From Pseudomonadota bacterium (GTDB lineage: Bacteria > Myxococcota > JACRCW01 > JAFGSX01): a stretch of DNA of 64,000 bases. The notes under the pieces were generated by a model. That model had not been told where the DNA came from, made no database searches, and saw only the letters and a list, made by a program, of their open reading frames with translations. This document shows, in pieces, positions 1,342 through 8,904 of the stretch. The translations under genes were made by a program, and so were the position numbers. The number at the start of each line of letters is the position of its first letter. The stretch's first letter is position 1. Location of the stretch: the NCBI GenBank assembly GCA_043821645.1, contig JBDRCO010000003.1, positions 255,936-319,935 of the forward strand. Reading direction: 5' to 3'.

Positions 1342-2913
1342 GTGGTGGGCCAGATTCTTCGCGACCAGACCGAGGACCTGCAGCGACGCATTGCCAAGAT
1401 CCAGCAGATGGGTGGCGCGGAGGCGGTGGCCAAGCAGCACGGCCGCGGCAAGCAGACTGCCCGCGAGCGCGTCGATGCGCTGTTCGACGCCGGCAGCTTC
1501 GTCGAACTCATGATTCACGGACGCTCGCAGTCGACCTCGCCCATGATGGCGGGCAAGGAGACTCCCGCCGATGGCGTGATCTGTGGTCATGGGCTGGTCG
1601 ACGGGCGGCGGGCCGCAGTCATCGCCTACGACTTCACCGTCATGGCCGGTTCCATTGGCCAGGTCACCGAACTCAAGTGTCAGCGGCTGCGCTCCATGGC
1701 CATCGAGGAGCGCATGCCTGTCATCTGGTTGCTGGACTCCGCGGGTGCGCGGGTGCAGGAAGTAGCCACGGCCTTCTTCGCCGGCAGCGGGCAGATGTTC
1801 TACGACCAGGTCGTGATGTCGGGCCTGGTTCCCCAGGTCGCCGCGATGATGGGACCCTGCGCCGCTGGCACGGCCTACGTTCCCGGGCTCGCGGATTTCG
1901 TACCCATGGTCAAGGGCACCAGCTCGATGGCGCTGGCAGGACCGCACCTGGTCAAGGCTGCGACCGGCGCGGACTACACCTCCGAGGAACTCGGCGGCAG
2001 CAAGCTTCACACCCGCGAGTCGGGGGTCGCAGACCTCGAGGTCGCCGACGACTCTGCCATGATGGACGTCGTCAAGCGCTTCTTGTCGTTCTTCCCCTCG
2101 CACTGCGACGAGCCTCCACCGCGGCGGCCCTGTGCGGATCCCGTGGAGCGCGCACCCGACGAACTGCTGGACCTGGTGCCGGACAACCCGCGGGCGCCCA
2201 TGGACATGCGGCGTGTCATCGAGCTGGTGGTGGACCAGGTCGACGGGCAGGCAGATCTTCTCGAGCTCAAGCCCAAGTGGGGCAAGGCCATCCTCACCAC
2301 CCTGGCGCGTCTGGACGGCCAGCCCGTGGGTCTGGTGGCCTCGAACAGCAGCCACATGGGTGGCATCCTGACCAATGATCCTGCGGACAAGGCCGCGCGT
2401 TTCATCAACCTGTGCGACGCCTTCGGCGTGCCCCTGATCTTCCTGCAGGACGTGCCAGGCTTCATGGTCGGCCCCAAGACCGAGAAGGAGGGCATCATCC
2501 GCCACGGCGCCAAGATGCTGTACGCGGTCAGCCGGGCCAGCGTGCCCAAGCTCACGGTGGTGGTGCGCAAGGGCTACGGCGCGGGCTACTACGTGATGTG
2601 TGGCAAGGGCTACAGACCCGACCTCATCGTGGCCTGGCCCGGAGCCGAGGTCAGCGTCATGGGGCCCGAGGGCGCGGTCAACATCGCCTTTCGCAAGCAG
2701 ATCGAGGCCAGCGACGATCCCGATGCCACCCGGGCGGCCCTGGTCGCGCAGTTTAGGGACATGATCAATCCCTACGAGCCGGCGAGCTGGACCTTTCTGG
2801 ACGACGTCATTGACCCGCGTCGCACGCGGCAGGTGCTGATCCAGGGCTTGCGCATGGCCGCGCACAAGCGGACCGAGTGGCCCGCCCGCCGCCATGGCGT
2901 CATGCCTGTGTGA
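1342..2913 (+). CDS. Acyl-CoA carboxylase carboxyltransferase (beta) subunit, PccB-like
   Basis: GKQTARER, DSAGARVQE, GPCAAG, DVPGFMVG..GIIRHGAK, RKGYGAG motifs; GAGAGG RBS. Confidence 0.93.
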   Translation: MVGQILRDQTEDLQRRIAKIQQMGGAEAVAKQHGRGKQTARERVDALFDAGSFVELMIHGRSQSTSPMMAGKETPADGVICGHGLVDGRRAAVIAYDFTVMAGSIGQVTELKCQRLRSMAIEERMPVIWLLDSAGARVQEVATAFFAGSGQMFYDQVVMSGLVPQVAAMMGPCAAGTAYVPGLADFVPMVKGTSSMALAGPHLVKAATGADYTSEELGGSKLHTRESGVADLEVADDSAMMDVVKRFLSFFPSHCDEPPPRRPCADPVERAPDELLDLVPDNPRAPMDMRRVIELVVDQVDGQADLLELKPKWGKAILTTLARLDGQPVGLVASNSSHMGGILTNDPADKAARFINLCDAFGVPLIFLQDVPGFMVGPKTEKEGIIRHGAKMLYAVSRASVPKLTVVVRKGYGAGYYVMCGKGYRPDLIVAWPGAEVSVMGPEGAVNIAFRKQIEASDDPDATRAALVAQFRDMINPYEPASWTFLDDVIDPRRTRQVLIQGLRMAAHKRTEWPARRHGVMPV

Positions 2914-2938
2914 GAAATCGATCGAAACGGGAGCCGTC

Positions 2939-3253
2939 ATGAAACACGCGATCTTCTCGACCCTCCTGGGCCTTGCCCTGCTCGGCCTCGCAGCCTGCGC
3001 CGCGGAGCTCGGCGATTCCTGCGGACCCGGTGTGAGCTGCCCCTCGGGGGCCGTGTGCCGCGACAACCTGTACCTCGAGGACCTGTGCAAGGAGGGTGTG
3101 GTGCCGGTCGAGGGCAGTGGCCCGGATGCGTACTGCACGGTGATGTGCGAGACCTCCGCGGACTGCAGCGAGCTGCCGAACAGCGACGGTTGTCTGCACG
3201 ATCCTCGCAGCAATCGCCTGCTGTGCAAGCCGGACTGCAGTGCCTACAAGTGA
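2939..3253 (+). CDS. Small Cys-rich lipoprotein
   Basis: Signal MKHAIFSTLLGLALLGLAAC with lipobox; Cys-rich mature part with YCTVMCETSADC; GGAG RBS. Confidence 0.75.
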   Translation: MKHAIFSTLLGLALLGLAACAAELGDSCGPGVSCPSGAVCRDNLYLEDLCKEGVVPVEGSGPDAYCTVMCETSADCSELPNSDGCLHDPRSNRLLCKPDCSAYK

Positions 3254-3278
3254 CCCCTTCGCGCACCGAGGAACACCC

Positions 3279-4151
<873 letters not shown>

Positions 4152-4155
4152 GCGC

Positions 4156-4608
4156 TCAGCACCCGGAACGCACAGGCGCCGGCGTCGAGCCACCACTGCA
4201 GCCCGACGACACCGGGCGGGAGCTGCTCGAGGAGCTGCTGGTGCGCCGCGGCGCTGTGCGGGGCCTGGGAACCTTGCCCTCAGCCACGGCGTCGAGCAGG
4301 CGAACACCCAGGGGCGACAGGCGCTGGGCCTCCCCGTAGCCGATCTCGCCATCCTGGTTGGCGTCGATGCGGGCCACGGTGGCCCCGACGGTCTCGAGCG
4401 CCTTCTTCATCTTGTTGACCGAGGCGTAGCGCTGGGCGGCGGCGCTGCATCCCGTCGTCACCGAGCCGTCTTTTGCCACCGCGGCCAGAAAGGGATCCTC
4501 GATCTCGTCCTTCTTGATCTTGGTGCGGCCGTCCGCCAGCTTCTCGAGTTGCTTCTTGTAGGCCTCGATGCCCTTCATGGCGGCGTCCGTGCGAACTCTG
4601 TTGCTCAT
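4156..4608 (-). CDS. 150-aa protein with EF-hand-like domain, Ser-rich linker and (S/T)GC motifs; candidate radical SAM substrate
   Basis: GGAGG RBS in the 11-nt gap after the radical SAM stop; DANQDGEIGYGE loop; tail SSSSSSSRPVSSGCSGGSTPAPVRSGC. Confidence 0.75.
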   Translation of the reverse strand: MSNRVRTDAAMKGIEAYKKQLEKLADGRTKIKKDEIEDPFLAAVAKDGSVTTGCSAAAQRYASVNKMKKALETVGATVARIDANQDGEIGYGEAQRLSPLGVRLLDAVAEGKVPRPRTAPRRTSSSSSSSRPVSSGCSGGSTPAPVRSGC

Positions 4609-4619
4609 GATCCCTCCGG

Positions 4620-5963
4620 TTAAAAGGTCGATACCTCGACGCTGTTGAGAACGCCTGAATCCCTGACAGATGCCGATACCCCGGCACCCGGCCGGGCTGG
4701 CAGTCGATCACACCAGCTATCCGCGGCGCCGATGCAGCCGTGCGCGTCGAGCGCGCGGACGCGGCAGCCACCGCGGCAGATCTCGAGACGATCGCAGTGC
4801 GCGCACTCGTCTGGCGCCTGCAGTGCGCGCAGGGCCTTGAACGACGCACCCTCGCGCCACAGCTGCAGCAGGCTGTGCTCGCGCAGTGTGCCCGCTGCAT
4901 GGCCCGCAGGAAGGTTGAGACAGGGTGTGACCACACCCGAGGGGGTCACACCGGCGACGATGCGTCCGGCCACACAGCCGAAGCCTTCGAAGTCCGGAGC
5001 TGTGCGCTCGTCGGGGTGAGGCGCGTCCAGGATCAGATCGCTTCCGGCCGCTGCGGCTCGCGCCTGCTCGACGGCCAGGACAAAGGACGCCCGATCACAG
5101 CTCAGCGCGTTCCCGTCGCGCAATGCCTCGCCCGCGGGATAGGCCGGCCGCAGCAGCAGGACCCGCGCTCCCTCGTGGTGCGCCAGGGCCACCATCTCGC
5201 CGACCCGGGAGCGGTTGAGCGGCGTGACCGTGAAGGAGATCGCGAAACCCGGTGCGTAGTGTCGGCGAAGCAGCTGCAAGCCACGCAAGGTCCTGTCGAA
5301 ACTGCCCGCGCCGCGCATGCTGTCATTGGTAATTGCGTCGGGACCGTCGAGGCTCACCGCCAGGCCTGCCGGCTGGACCTCGGCGAGCCGCGACAGGATC
5401 TCGACCTGCAGCCGCGAGCCGTTGGTGTGCACGAAGCAGTCGATGCCCCGCTGCCGGGCATGGCCTACCACCTCGACGAGCTCGGGACGGAGGAAGGGCT
5501 CGCCGCCTCCCAGCACCAGCTTGAGGCAGCCGATGTGCGCCAGCTCGTCGACCAGTGCCAGCAATTCGGGCAACGACAGCTCGTCGTTCGCCCGCCGGCC
5601 GCTGCTCGAGTAGCAGTGGCTGCACGAGAAGTTGCAGGCCTGGGTCAGACCCAGGTGCAGCACCAGCGGCGCCGCGGCCGCGCCGTCCAGCGGTTCGAGC
5701 TCCACCAGGTCCGCGTCGAGGGTCGAGGCCGGATCGATCGCGGTGAGTTCTCCGACTCTCGTGGCCGCCAGCGCTGTCCGTTCGGGGCCACAGGCCCGGG
5801 CCAGCACGGGGAGGACCTGGTGCAGGGGCCGGTGCCGGTTCTCGACAAGGGCGAAGCATTCGGCCGCGTCCAGGGCATGGTACTGGTGCGCAGCGCGGTC
5901 GTAGAGCAGACCGCGGGTCCCCTCGATGCGCAGCGCATGGCGTGGCACGGCGGCTGGGCTCAA
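4620..5963 (-). CDS. Radical SAM/SPASM protein (PqqE/MftC-like architecture) with possible N-terminal RRE
   Basis: CNFSCSHC, GGEPFLR, SLDG; SPASM cysteines CVAG..TPC, CAHC...CRGGC, DSWC; N-terminal GLLYD...YHALD is PqqD/RRE-like; TTG start uncertain. Confidence 0.9.
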   Translation of the reverse strand: MSPAAVPRHALRIEGTRGLLYDRAAHQYHALDAAECFALVENRHRPLHQVLPVLARACGPERTALAATRVGELTAIDPASTLDADLVELEPLDGAAAAPLVLHLGLTQACNFSCSHCYSSSGRRANDELSLPELLALVDELAHIGCLKLVLGGGEPFLRPELVEVVGHARQRGIDCFVHTNGSRLQVEILSRLAEVQPAGLAVSLDGPDAITNDSMRGAGSFDRTLRGLQLLRRHYAPGFAISFTVTPLNRSRVGEMVALAHHEGARVLLLRPAYPAGEALRDGNALSCDRASFVLAVEQARAAAAGSDLILDAPHPDERTAPDFEGFGCVAGRIVAGVTPSGVVTPCLNLPAGHAAGTLREHSLLQLWREGASFKALRALQAPDECAHCDRLEICRGGCRVRALDAHGCIGAADSWCDRLPARPGAGVSASVRDSGVLNSVEVSTF

Positions 5964-6041
5964 GAGGCGCTCCTGGTGAAGGCGAACCGGTCCATAATAT
6001 ATTGTCCGCGCCCTAGATTTGGCCTCCCGGCGCCCGGCTGC

Positions 6042-7721
6042 TCAATGCCGGTTCTTGGGCCGGCGCCGGCGGCGTCGCTTCTTCTTTTTCTTCTTCTTCT
6101 TGACGCCCTGGTCTCGACTGCTCGCGTCGAGCTGTTCCGGGGCGGGGGGAGCGGCATCGCCGGAGCCTGCAGGCACGCCACTGTCGACGGGCAGGCCGGC
6201 GTCGACAGGCAGGGGGGCACCAGCGTCCGCGTCGTCTGCGTCGGAAACCAGCCCGGGCAGAGGGCCCACATCGAGGACCAGCGAGCCCACGGCGAGCACG
6301 ACCAGGACCCCGCCCAGGAAGGCCACGATACGGGGCCAGCGCCGCTCGCGGACCCGCGTGCCGTGCAGGGTGCCGGGTGGTGCGTCAAGCCTTGGCGGAT
6401 GTGTGGCGCCGGCCAGCGATGAGTCCTCACCTGGTTGCCACAGGGGTCTCTCGCCGGTGGGCTGTGCACCCTCGAGGCGCGAGCCGTCGAGGTGGCGCAG
6501 CGCCACGTGCACGCCCGAGGCCTGCAGGTTGGTGACGATGTTGGTGGCGCGGTGGTGAATGTTGCTGACCTCGCGCCAGTGGGTCGGCGGCGTGAAGCCC
6601 GTGACCATCGTGCTCGACGAGGCCTCCTCGGGGGCGTCCATCTCCAGGGTGCCGCCATGGCCCGCCACGGCCATCGCCGGAGGGGGCAGGGGGGCGGCCG
6701 CCGGCAGGCTCTGGGGACCGCTCAGGCTCTCGACCCACACCCTCAGGGAGTCCGTCTCCTTGGGATAGAGCTGATTCATGAACGCGGCCACGTGTCGCGA
6801 CGTCACGGCCGGACCGCTGTCGCTGATGAAGCGCTCGAGGGCCTGCCGCAGCTCGTCGGCACTGCGATAGCGCTGGTCGCGATCGCGCGCGAGGCAGCGC
6901 AGGCAGATGGCCTCGAGGCCGGCGGGGATCTGCGCATTGTACGACCGCGGTGGTCGAGGTTCGCTGCGCATCATCTGTTCGATGAGCTGGTCGGTCGAGC
7001 GCACCGAGTAGGGAAACTGCGCCGTCAGGAACAGGTACAGCGTGACCCCCAGGGCGTACAGGTCGGCGCGTGCGTCCAGCGCCTCGCCGCGGATGGCCTC
7101 GGGTGCCAGGTAGTTGAGCTTGCCCTTGACCACGCCATGCTGGGTGGTGTCAGGCGTCATGCGCGCCTTGGCCACCCCGAAGTCCACGACCTTGACCCGG
7201 CCGTCGAAGCACACGATCACGTTCTCCGGGCTCATGTCCCGGTGCACCAGTCGCAGTGGCTGACCCTGGGCATCGGTGAGAATGTGGGCGTGGTGGAGAC
7301 CGGCCGCGGTGTCGGCGACGATGCGCGCCAGCACCGTGTGCGGGACCCAGAAGCCGCCGGTGTCACAGGTCTTGCCCACAGCGAGCAGGGTCTTGCCGTT
7401 GAGAAACTCCATGGCCAGCAGCAGCTCGCCCTCGGTGCGCGCCAGCTCGTGCACGTCCACCACGCTGCCGTGATGGATCATCGACGCCAGCTGTGCCTCG
7501 TTGACGAACATGGTCTCGAAGCGCGGATCCGCCAGCAGGTGTGGCCGCACACGCTTGAGGACCACCACCTGATCCGTGGGTGGCCGCTCGAGATCGCGCG
7601 CCAGGTAGACCTCGGCCATGCCACCCTCGGCCAGCAGGCCCAGGACCCTGTAGTGCAGCAGGACCTGGCCTGGCAGGAGAGGCACGGTACTTGTCAGGTC
7701 GGTGGTCATGGTCGATGCCAT
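6042..7721 (-). CDS. Membrane-anchored Hanks-type Ser/Thr protein kinase
   Basis: GGMAEVY, VVLK, HRDMSPEN, DFG, YLAPE motifs; one TM helix (IVAFLGGVLVVLAVGSLVL); polybasic C-terminus; start 7721 or 7709. Confidence 0.93.
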   Translation of the reverse strand: MASTMTTDLTSTVPLLPGQVLLHYRVLGLLAEGGMAEVYLARDLERPPTDQVVVLKRVRPHLLADPRFETMFVNEAQLASMIHHGSVVDVHELARTEGELLLAMEFLNGKTLLAVGKTCDTGGFWVPHTVLARIVADTAAGLHHAHILTDAQGQPLRLVHRDMSPENVIVCFDGRVKVVDFGVAKARMTPDTTQHGVVKGKLNYLAPEAIRGEALDARADLYALGVTLYLFLTAQFPYSVRSTDQLIEQMMRSEPRPPRSYNAQIPAGLEAICLRCLARDRDQRYRSADELRQALERFISDSGPAVTSRHVAAFMNQLYPKETDSLRVWVESLSGPQSLPAAAPLPPPAMAVAGHGGTLEMDAPEEASSSTMVTGFTPPTHWREVSNIHHRATNIVTNLQASGVHVALRHLDGSRLEGAQPTGERPLWQPGEDSSLAGATHPPRLDAPPGTLHGTRVRERRWPRIVAFLGGVLVVLAVGSLVLDVGPLPGLVSDADDADAGAPLPVDAGLPVDSGVPAGSGDAAPPAPEQLDASSRDQGVKKKKKKKKRRRRRRPKNRH

Positions 7722-7821
7722 GCTACTAGAGCCTGGCCACCACACAAGAGGGGCGCGGTGGGGCTTGACGCGTCGGGCCGCTCCGGGTCATATGCGGTCG
7801 CAGAGACCGTCGAGGGCCCGC

Positions 7822-8361
7822 ATGTCGACCGAGCAGCAGACCATCCGCGACTTCATCGATACCGCGCGCAACGTGACGGCCGAGTCCTTCGAGAAGCGCT
7901 ATCTCCACCCCTTCTTGCTCGGGCGCGAGGTGCTCGAGGAGGAGTTCAGCTTCGCCACGGCCATCGCCACCGTCGACGAGATGGAAAGGGGTGACCGGCA
8001 GACCGGCCTGCGCATCCGGGACTGGGTGTTGCCGGTGCAGCGGCCCGAGGGGGCCAGCAAGGTCGGCAGCCTGCGCGTGTTCGTGGGACGGGCCTCGAAC
8101 AACGATCTGAGCATCCCCCATCCGACGGTGAGCAAGCTGCACGCTTATTTCACCCTGGAAGGCAGCCGCTGGTGGATCGTCGACGTGGGATCCTCCAACG
8201 GCACCACGGTCAATGGCATGAAGGCTCCCGCACGCGCCAAGACTGCCGTCTACGACAAGGATGTGGTGGTGTTCGGCCGCTGTGCCTTTTCGTTCCTGTT
8301 GCCGCGCAGCCTCTACGAGCTGGTCGCGAGCATGGCCAGTGCCATCCAGCCCACGGACTGA
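7822..8361 (+). CDS. FHA-domain protein
   Basis: FHA motifs VGR...NDL.IPHPTVSKLHA, DVGSSNGT.VNG. Confidence 0.9.
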   Translation: MSTEQQTIRDFIDTARNVTAESFEKRYLHPFLLGREVLEEEFSFATAIATVDEMERGDRQTGLRIRDWVLPVQRPEGASKVGSLRVFVGRASNNDLSIPHPTVSKLHAYFTLEGSRWWIVDVGSSNGTTVNGMKAPARAKTAVYDKDVVVFGRCAFSFLLPRSLYELVASMASAIQPTD

Positions 8362-8364
8362 GCG

Positions 8365-8904
8365 ATGAGCCAGGGTAACGAGCCCTTGCGGCTCATGAGT
8401 CTGCTGGAACTCGCGCGCAAGGCTACCCCTGACGTGTTTGCTGTGCGCCTGGGTGGCGGACCCGTGCTGGTGCGTCAACAGCCCGCGGAGGAGGACGAGG
8501 ACGGGTGGTCCTTCAACACCGCGTCCCGTCTGACCGCGGTGGTGGACACGGCGCCTGGTCGCGAGCTCGTGCTGCACAGTGATGATCTCGTGCACGTGGT
8601 GCGCAAGGCCCACGTGGGCGCGGCCTTTGCCCGCACCATTCTCATAGGTCGGGCAGACTCCAATGACATCCGGCTGCCACATCCCAGCGTGTCCAAGCTC
8701 CACGCTCGAATCCAGCGCGATCCTCAGGACCGCTACCTGCTGTCGGATGCAGCGTCCCAGAACGGGACCCAGGTCGAGGGTCGCCGACTGGAAGCGGACG
8801 AGTCCGTGGAACTCACCGAGGGTGCCTGGATTCGGATGGGGGACCTCAGCATGTGCTACCTCACCCTGGACCGCTTTTACGAGGTCGTCCGGCGCATCCA
8901 CTGA
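8365..8904 (+). CDS. FHA-domain protein (paralogue of the upstream gene)
   Basis: IGRADSNDIRLPHPSVSKLHA, SQNGTQVEG. Confidence 0.9.
   Translation: MSQGNEPLRLMSLLELARKATPDVFAVRLGGGPVLVRQQPAEEDEDGWSFNTASRLTAVVDTAPGRELVLHSDDLVHVVRKAHVGAAFARTILIGRADSNDIRLPHPSVSKLHARIQRDPQDRYLLSDAASQNGTQVEGRRLEADESVELTEGAWIRMGDLSMCYLTLDRFYEVVRRIH

Follow-up and report, generated by a model that had tools for sequence, protein, structure and literature searches.

The DNA analysed here, referred to below as the window, is a stretch of 64,000 nucleotides (nt) from a genome of the phylum Myxococcota (assembly GCA_043821645.1, contig JBDRCO010000003.1, positions 255,936 to 319,935). Its minus strand carries two adjacent genes. 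The first (positions 4620-5963) encodes an enzyme of 447 amino acids (aa) with a radical S-adenosylmethionine (SAM) domain, a SPASM region and an N-terminal domain that resembles the recognition element (RRE) of RiPPs (peptides synthesized on ribosomes and modified post-translationally); the second, directly downstream (positions 4156-4608), encodes a 150-aa protein that is presumed to be its substrate and is called the partner below. The enzyme gene begins with a TTG codon, with AGGAG 6 nt upstream, and its TAA stop codon ends at position 4620, while the partner gene begins with ATG at position 4608. The minus-strand spacer of 11 nt between them (4609-4619, CCGGAGGGATC) holds the ribosome-binding site GGAGG, as the initial annotation of this locus had read directly from the sequence. 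Among relatives the gap between the two genes is 0-15 nt, or the genes overlap by ATGA. Judged from sequence, enzyme and partner are translationally coupled. The reading frame of the partner is supported by an excess of changes at the third codon position over those at the first and second positions, which was seen in eight of eight pairwise comparisons of partner genes. Database members carry the name 'hypothetical protein' wherever they are named, and no paper describing the pair was among those listed by full-text literature searches. The main text of PMC10288494, a compendium covering almost 15,000 radical SAM proteins associated with RiPPs, makes no mention of 'Myxococc', of repeats or of a C-terminal Cys, although its supplementary tables, which lay outside this search, might list these proteins. 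The pair lacks annotation and recurs across Myxococcota; in all probability it represents a new system for the chemical modification of a protein.

The initial annotation had described the enzyme as having a CxxxCxxC motif, a full set of SPASM cysteines and an RRE-like N-terminus; the first two were seen and the third is predicted. Pfam models matched the radical SAM domain (Radical_SAM, 90 bits) and the SPASM domain (28.9 bits with a cutoff of 21.5, residues 330-391). The ligands of the radical SAM cluster, C110-x3-C114-x2-C117 (5613-5636, minus strand), and the seven cysteines of the SPASM region (C330, C348, C387, C390, C396, C400 and C418; 4710-4976, minus strand) are invariant in 10 of 10 aligned homologues. 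Seven SPASM cysteines are the number expected for two auxiliary clusters. An additional cysteine, Cys289 (LxC289DRxxF, window positions 5097-5099), is placed after the radical SAM core and before the SPASM region; all ten close homologues have it, whereas it has no counterpart in the alignments with SkfB and PqqE, and could be an eighth cluster ligand. The N-terminal domain (residues 1-95; 5679-5963, minus strand) was modelled by AlphaFold2 (AF2) as three strands (9-14, 17-22 and 27-31) and then three helices (33-41, 47-58 and 60-74), which is the layout of a RiPP recognition element. The mean pLDDT (predicted score in the local distance difference test) of the enzyme model was 69.6, with about 69-94 per 10-residue block in the N-terminal part. 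No Pfam family, including PqqD, matched this N-terminal piece even at E<=10. A profile built from ten homologues had SkfB (6efn) as its best relative of known structure (E 3.4e-33), followed by PqqE, SuiB and CteB, and the alignment starts at residue 1 of both enzyme and SkfB, so that the N-terminal domain is included. The predicted fold and the alignment to the N-terminal domain of SkfB together support an RRE-like N-terminus.

A Foldseek search with the enzyme model likewise returned SkfB as the best match (E 4.3e-18 over 395 columns), ahead of CteB (5why/5wgg), SuiB, PqqE and anSME. SkfB, CteB, SuiB and PqqE all act on peptides; SkfB and CteB form thioethers, and SkfB, the sactisynthase of the sporulation killing factor, connects the sulfur of a Cys with a carbon in its adjacent precursor. 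The enzyme differs from SkfB in its substrate family, which is unrelated; it has a full seven-Cys SPASM set, and the profile alignment to SkfB stops at query residue 353, before the CxxCx5CxxxC block. Among the best 25 of 75 NCBIfam models listed for the enzyme, none scored at or above its cutoff. The highest-scoring curated family was MftC (TIGR03962, 175.5 bits with a cutoff of 265); lower scores were those of NirJ2 (145.5 and 500), AhbD (137.3 and 500), PqqE (TIGR02109, 108.8 and 381.35), SkfB (TIGR04403, 83.2 and 300) and SbtM (TIGR04082, 81.4 and 350); the NirJ, NirJ1/2, AhbC and AhbD models as a whole gave 98.6-145.5 bits with cutoffs of 500-650. A place in a cofactor-biosynthesis clade, which the initial annotation had named as an outcome that would speak against its proposal, was thus not found with the MftC, PqqE, NirJ, AhbC or AhbD models, and none of the pqq, mft or heme genes, whose absence beside the pair it had also stated, is among the neighbours in the window. 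Scores on PapB-type and StsB-type models were far below cutoff, and TIGR04463, a model related to CrpC, was not among the best 25 of the 75. On its architecture and its best relatives of known structure, the enzyme is therefore of the peptide-maturase kind; it stands outside every curated family.

The partner was predicted by AF2 to be helical over residues 1-110 (4279-4608, minus strand; helices 7-25, 39-45, 64-81, 91-94 and 99-109; pLDDT 80-89) and disordered over residues 111-150 (4159-4278, minus strand; pLDDT <50 at 116-142). This agrees with the ordered domain of about 110 aa, the EF-hand-like loop and the tail noted originally, as do the three cysteines, all in an (S/T)GC context (more generally xGC) and one of them terminal. 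Cys54 belongs to the loop site T51-T52-G53-C54 (4447-4458, minus strand), which the model places in the loop that joins helices 39-45 and 64-81; among 13 partners of the paralogue groups, C54 does not vary and G53 is present in at least 90%. The basic, Ser-rich tail contains two Pxx(S)GC units and ends in ...RPVSSGCSGGSTPAPVRSGC. In the first unit, P132-V-S-S-G-C137 (4198-4215, minus strand), P132, V133, S134 and C137 are invariant in a four-sequence alignment and the unit fits the consensus P-V-S-T-G-C; in the second, P145-V-R-S-G-C150 (4159-4176, minus strand), Cys150 is the last residue of the protein. The VSTGC units of the partner family were also considered as lipoprotein lipoboxes, a reading that was rejected because no hydrophobic signal sequence precedes any unit.

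The EF-hand-like loop (DANQDGEIGYGE, residues 82-93; 4330-4365, minus strand) fits the canonical 12-residue pattern (D1, N/D3, D5, G6, I/L8, E12) and is flanked by the helices predicted at 64-81 and 91-109; across 13 relatives D82, D86 and E93 vary little or not at all. Searches of Pfam (including the EF-hand families EF-hand_1/5/6/7) and NCBIfam with the window partner gave no family at E<=10; relatives of the partner gave sub-threshold Pfam EF-hand matches (E 0.0015-0.1, 11.8-18.3 bits with cutoffs of about 25-30). The neighbours of the partner model in Foldseek and the ESM Atlas were nearly all EF-hand proteins, with lanmodulin first, but these matches are weak, at E>=0.015 and template modelling scores of 0.28-0.39; the Foldseek search gave no match at E<=0.001 and a feature-based search of the ESM Atlas gave no usable match. 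For none of the partners did Pfam or NCBIfam name a family at E<=10; isolated matches to a class III lanthipeptide, XopAA, the MT0933 antitoxin and the Hera RNA-binding domain were far below cutoffs and were taken as chance. There is one canonical loop only, and in the model the Cys-bearing loop would take the place of the first EF-hand loop. The label 'EF-hand-like' is a fair one for such a predicted domain; membership in the EF-hand family goes beyond what the matches show.

Conservation of the pair was determined in searches that used the enzyme alone as query, so that a partner was not presupposed. In a collection of species genomes nine loci were found, all in metagenome-assembled genomes (MAGs) of Myxococcota and with enzymes 50-65% identical to the one in the window; an xGC protein touches the enzyme gene in all nine (eight downstream, one upstream). 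Among 401 Myxococcota genomes, enzyme matches of 710-816 bits occurred in 12, and ten of the neighbours at these loci end in GC and one in SSHC, with the remaining one truncated where its contig stops. Seven further loci came from a metagenome scan (48-53% identity; four weaker loci of 27-33% identity, L063-L066, are left out of this count), with a downstream partner ending in Cys at every one of them. Enzyme homologues of 48-65% identity were present in 19 other loci. After de-duplication, Cys is the last residue of all 19 complete partners, in 17 of them as part of (S/T)GC, with a 20th locus cut by a contig end; addition of database proteins found with partner queries gave 31 distinct partners, every one of which ends in Cys. 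These partners have two to six cysteines each, 122 in total and none outside the motif: the residue at -2 is Thr (102) or Ser (18) in 120 of them, that at -1 is Gly in 116, that at -4 is Val in 86 and that at -5 is Pro in 67. Clustering of open reading frames over ten loci left enzyme and partner as the only shared genes. The pairing of enzyme and partner is not chance, and the expectation that close homologues of the enzyme would be accompanied by a neighbour with xGC motifs was borne out at all complete loci. In the closest relative (L006/L002, G001:C522) the partner, 73% identical, has a single unit and ends in ...PVSSHC, where His replaces a Gly that is otherwise almost invariant, and is followed by a small zinc-ribbon-like open reading frame with four Cys pairs.

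The close partners occur in two forms. In type A, to which the window partner belongs, one to five tail units come after the EF-hand-like domain. Type B, which accounts for about half of the close partners, is a peptide of 75-133 aa, rich in Lys, Pro, Ser and Thr and devoid of the domain, with three to five near-identical PVSTGCG units separated by variable spacers, the first unit starting at about residue 10; the usual order is two PVSTGCG units, a conserved middle piece (GW-K...S-R---LLEKA), one more unit and RTGC at the end. An hhalign comparison of the two types aligned the tails alone (probability 95%, E 2.6e-8). Because about half of the close partners lack the domain and only the repeat tails are held in common, the domain is dispensable for the relation between enzyme and partner and is thus not an obligatory leader, contrary to its initial interpretation as a new leader or carrier; of the rest of that interpretation, a non-cofactor enzyme and an xGC neighbour are supported, and an intact protein as product is plausible. 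With its own conserved xGC loop site (Cys54, invariant in 13 relatives), the domain looks like a substrate and not only like a handle. The LS-R---LLEKA piece of type B was considered as a remnant of an EF-hand exit helix and docking site, which stays a guess, as hhalign aligned the tails only.

In a rival reading the partner would be the precursor of a multi-core RiPP natural product: every repeat would be a core with Cys at its end, and a protease and a transporter encoded elsewhere would excise and export it. The short domain-less partners with their near-identical units and variable spacers resemble repeat precursors such as TvgA, which carries Thr-Val-Gly-Gly repeats (PMC11002830). However, no protease, transporter or exporter is conserved across the ten clustered loci, which fits the original remark that none adjoins the pair; there is no signal peptide or obvious leader peptide ahead of the first unit; one conserved site lies within the folded domain; and paralogous partners of about 300 aa have two sites only. 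A multi-core precursor is therefore improbable. Neither a protease nor an exporter accompanies the pair, and one of the sites falls within the folded domain; modification therefore probably yields a protein that remains intact in the cytoplasm and not a released peptide.

The genome that contains the window has three further, paralogous pairs of enzyme and partner, which makes four in all (those on C52 and C138 came from weak matches of the type A profile). On contig C52 (L045) a 307-aa partner ending in VSSGC (5395-6318, minus strand) adjoins an enzyme gene at 4055-5395 (minus strand); on contig C138 (L046) a 315-aa partner ending in DNRC (3032-3979, plus strand) adjoins an enzyme gene at 3973-5286 (plus strand); and on contig C37 (L067) a partner ending in GTSC, located within 2600-3454 (minus strand, L067 coordinates), stands divergent to an enzyme gene at C37:17377-18663 (plus strand). 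In the C52 and C138 pairs the partner gene comes first and overlaps that of the enzyme. Common to the paralogue partners are a helical N-terminal region whose loop reads small-G-C-S/G-G, a single EF-hand loop and a C-terminal Cys, and the 307- and 315-aa proteins carry an extra helical domain. The close family has the consensus P-V-S-T-G-C-G, the paralogues have small-G-C-G/S-G, and an alignment of 13 partners left only Cys54, the tail Cys and residues of the EF-hand loop invariant. The partner profile was also compared with 1.84 billion representative proteins, which gave 721 matches at E<=0.001 and 97 at E<=1e-10. The best 150 of the 721 were kept for inspection, and 47 of them with four or more matching stretches were dropped as generic multi-EF-hand proteins. 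Most of the remaining 103 wider-family proteins are about 300 aa long with the loop Cys near position 75, and a Cys-free subset is present; 61 end in Cys, 72 have Cys within the last three residues, and in 11 the last Cys is followed by one to three residues. As far as these alignments show, Cys flanked by small residues is the only strictly conserved feature of the partner across all relatives.

Within the 401 Myxococcota genomes the type A profile matched 21 places in 14 genomes. Fifteen of these adjoin a family enzyme (13 abut enzyme matches and two more have a divergent enzyme gene); the linked partners have the loop Cys in 15 of 15 cases and a Cys at, or at most three residues from, the C-terminus in 14 of 15, the exception being L043, which has the enzyme alongside without a C-terminal Cys. 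At five places there is no family enzyme nearby: two of these matches are weak look-alikes of another protein and three are Cys-free homologues of about 300 aa (L068, G034:C24; L071, G361:C838; L072, G348:C41), which end in ...YRFVPPQS or ...GSDLP. The last place, on a contig of 1.75 kb, cannot be judged. The Cys-free homologues without an adjacent enzyme suggest that the partner fold has, therefore, a life of its own without modification. Presence of the cysteine tracks presence of the enzyme, a correlation counted over related genomes and not over independent trials, and this points to the cysteine as the target.

Two other views of the target can be set against this correlation. Modification might fall on another residue of the motif, for instance by conversion of Val to cyclopropylglycine or by epimerisation. 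TvgB, which acts on Val in TVGG repeats (PMC11002830), is a precedent for the former, TigE (8vpo) is among the fold matches of the enzyme, and the high frequencies of Val at -4 and of Thr or Ser at -2 would fit. Across the paralogue groups, however, only the Cys is invariant, and the Cys-free homologues lack an adjacent enzyme, which makes a target other than Cys very unlikely. An activity similar to that of MftC would instead be restricted to the end of the protein. MftC acts at the C-terminal residues of a small neighbour, and its counterpart here would carry out an oxidative decarboxylation of the terminal Cys, possibly with a cross-link, to give a cofactor-like group. MftC is the top NCBIfam match of the enzyme, and Cys is the last residue in all close partners and in more than half of the wider family; the score is nevertheless below cutoff, no other mft genes (mftA/B/D/E/F) are adjacent, and the partner has internal sites too. 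Such internal xGC sites, one of them inside the folded domain, are just as conserved as the terminal one, and they, together with the relatives that have residues after the last Cys, make this decarboxylation less likely; the L043 partner likewise retains its enzyme. In sum, it is regarded as a quite unlikely outcome.

The pair is read here as a two-gene protein-modification module, in which an RRE-guided change of the xGC cysteines would yield an intact protein (probability about 0.6). The RRE-like domain would dock on the partner, and the radical SAM cluster would cleave SAM to generate a 5'-deoxyadenosyl radical, which would take a hydrogen from each xGC site or from a position beside it; the cysteine sulfur, an electron, or both might be handled by the SPASM clusters. 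Each xGC cysteine would be modified independently, that is Cys54 in the loop of the domain and Cys137 and Cys150 in the tail, as the variable number of sites (two to six) makes a fixed pairing of cysteines unlikely. Like the known RRE-dependent radical SAM/SPASM peptide maturases, the enzyme combines the CxxxCxxC motif, the seven SPASM cysteines and a predicted RRE fold with a co-conserved adjacent gene. A prediction of the enzyme-partner complex gave an ipSAE of 0.00 in two runs without controls, which speaks neither for nor against binding.

A thioether cross-link of the sactionine or ranthionine type is tentatively favoured as the product, although by analogy and at less than even odds. The reasons are that SkfB and CteB, which are among the nearest relatives of known structure, form thioethers and that CrpC sets a precedent for a protein substrate. 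The RRE-radical SAM-SPASM architecture is shared with CteB and other ranthipeptide maturases, with sactipeptide maturases and with CrpC. CrpC installs thioethers on CrpA, a protein-sized neighbour (28.8 kDa) with repeated Cys motifs, and no protease or exporter is defined for this system in that source (PMC13692751). The two systems differ in that CrpA is an archaeal protein rich in Cys (>=10%) with C-x-x-Q/D motifs (PMC13692751), whereas the cysteines of the partners described here are rare, follow (S/T)-G and include the last residue.

A heterocycle derived from Cys is the next most likely product. Each xGC Cys would be converted to a ring resembling a 5-thiooxazole, and the rings would serve as soft-metal ligands on the EF-hand-like scaffold of a cytoplasmic metal-binding protein. 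The precedent is SbtM, a radical SAM/SPASM enzyme that modifies the Cys itself, forming a thio(seleno)oxazole from Cys or Sec of SbtA with loss of four hydrogens according to PMC11002830. The SbtM model matches the enzyme, the cysteines are flanked by Gly or other small residues in the manner of heterocycle-forming Cys sites in copper-binding RiPPs, for which a modified Lys-Cys-Gly site is given as an example (PMC12538549), and the EF-hand loop lies next to the loop Cys. On the other side, the score of the SbtM model is far below its cutoff and 17th among the models listed, there is no selenocysteine signal (partner frames lack an in-frame TGA), and no metal-handling genes are found near the pair in the window. 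Modification of the Cys itself is a serious rival because the residues around the Cys vary in the paralogues, even though the full picture of ring-borne soft-metal ligands is unlikely.

Several observations weigh against a protein-modification module or against its preferred product. The variation around the Cys in the wider family (GGCGG, VGCGG, SSCGG) leaves no evident fixed acceptor residue for a local thioether, and the enzyme scores higher on the MftC model than on the thioether-forming NCBIfam families. The EF-hand membership of the partner domain is weakly supported, by predicted structure and sub-threshold matches. The loci come from related MAGs of one phylum, so that the counts do not represent independent events. 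Two enzymes of 43-45% identity (L028, G039:C197; L027, G072:C53) have no co-conserved adjacent precursor or xGC gene, and no xGC partner was found in the G039 and G072 genomes with the profiles tried; they form a clade with the close family (support 100/99). A repeat-peptide profile found nothing in G039, G072 and the genome of the window (G000) and also missed the partner of G000 itself, and is thus uninformative. In a clade of Myxococcaceae enzymes with 30-35% identity there is no partner within 1.5 kb of the enzyme. The enzyme tree has no outgroup, and hence the ancestral state of the pairing is not readable from it. An unannotated protein of 415 aa is encoded just downstream of the L028 enzyme, in convergent orientation.

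In a last rival reading the partner would not be a substrate but a calcium-sensing regulator, or a metal or Fe-S carrier for the enzyme with the cysteines as metal ligands. An EF-hand-like loop and cysteines as the only invariant residues would suit such a role. The enzyme, however, carries a peptide-recognition (RRE-like) domain, the variable Cys count per partner fits poorly with a fixed metal site, and the domain-less partners have no EF-hand at all; a role of this kind is accordingly thought highly improbable.

The neighbouring genes in the window encode a carboxyltransferase, a BKACE protein, a Ser/Thr kinase, two FHA proteins and a class II ribonucleotide reductase. The BKACE gene is convergent with that of the partner, and their stop codons (TGA at 4149-4151, plus strand, and TGA at 4156-4158, minus strand) are 4 nt apart, which leaves no room for a separate terminator. 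The kinase gene (6042-7745, minus strand) is located 78 nt upstream of the enzyme gene; divergent from it stand the two genes for FHA-domain proteins (7702-8361 and 8365-8904, plus strand). At its C-terminus (6042-6100) the kinase has a stretch with eight Lys and six Arg (KKKKKKKKRRRRRRPKNRH), whose coding sequence, rich in AAG and AGA, is unusual for DNA of 67% G+C. The partner tail has a run of seven Ser; the kinase/FHA context is not kept in other loci, and a link of the pair to phosphorylation is therefore only a thought. A contig of 209 nt from a metatranscriptome library covers positions 4598-4806 at 100% identity; as it includes only 11 nt on the partner side and may reflect DNA carry-over, it shows neither transcription nor co-transcription. 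A second RNA run had no match to the locus.

RRE-bearing radical SAM/SPASM enzymes are a main source of new peptide chemistry, and to our knowledge their substrates are nearly all short leader-core peptides. The type of system described here is known, whereas the class of substrate is new and the family unannotated. A single, very strict Cys motif defines this family, and it spans the range from disordered repeat peptides to folded EF-hand-like proteins of about 300 aa with a site inside the fold. The modified partner is perhaps metal-binding through its EF-hand loop. More specifically, a Cys-derived group (a heterocycle or an intraprotein cross-link) might be placed in the loop at the first EF-hand position, beside the calcium loop, as well as on the tail. 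This picture, drawn from predicted structure, is doubtful; if true, it would define a new class of post-translationally built metal- or redox-active proteins, widespread in Myxococcota and represented by the four pairs in the genome of the window, with the short repeat peptides as a pared-down version of this substrate. Which residues to mutate follows from the motif statistics and from the joint occurrence of Cys and enzyme, and repeat peptides of 96-118 aa offer an easy first substrate. The family is well suited to asking cleanly in what way such enzymes recognise proteins and whether they build metal or redox sites on them.

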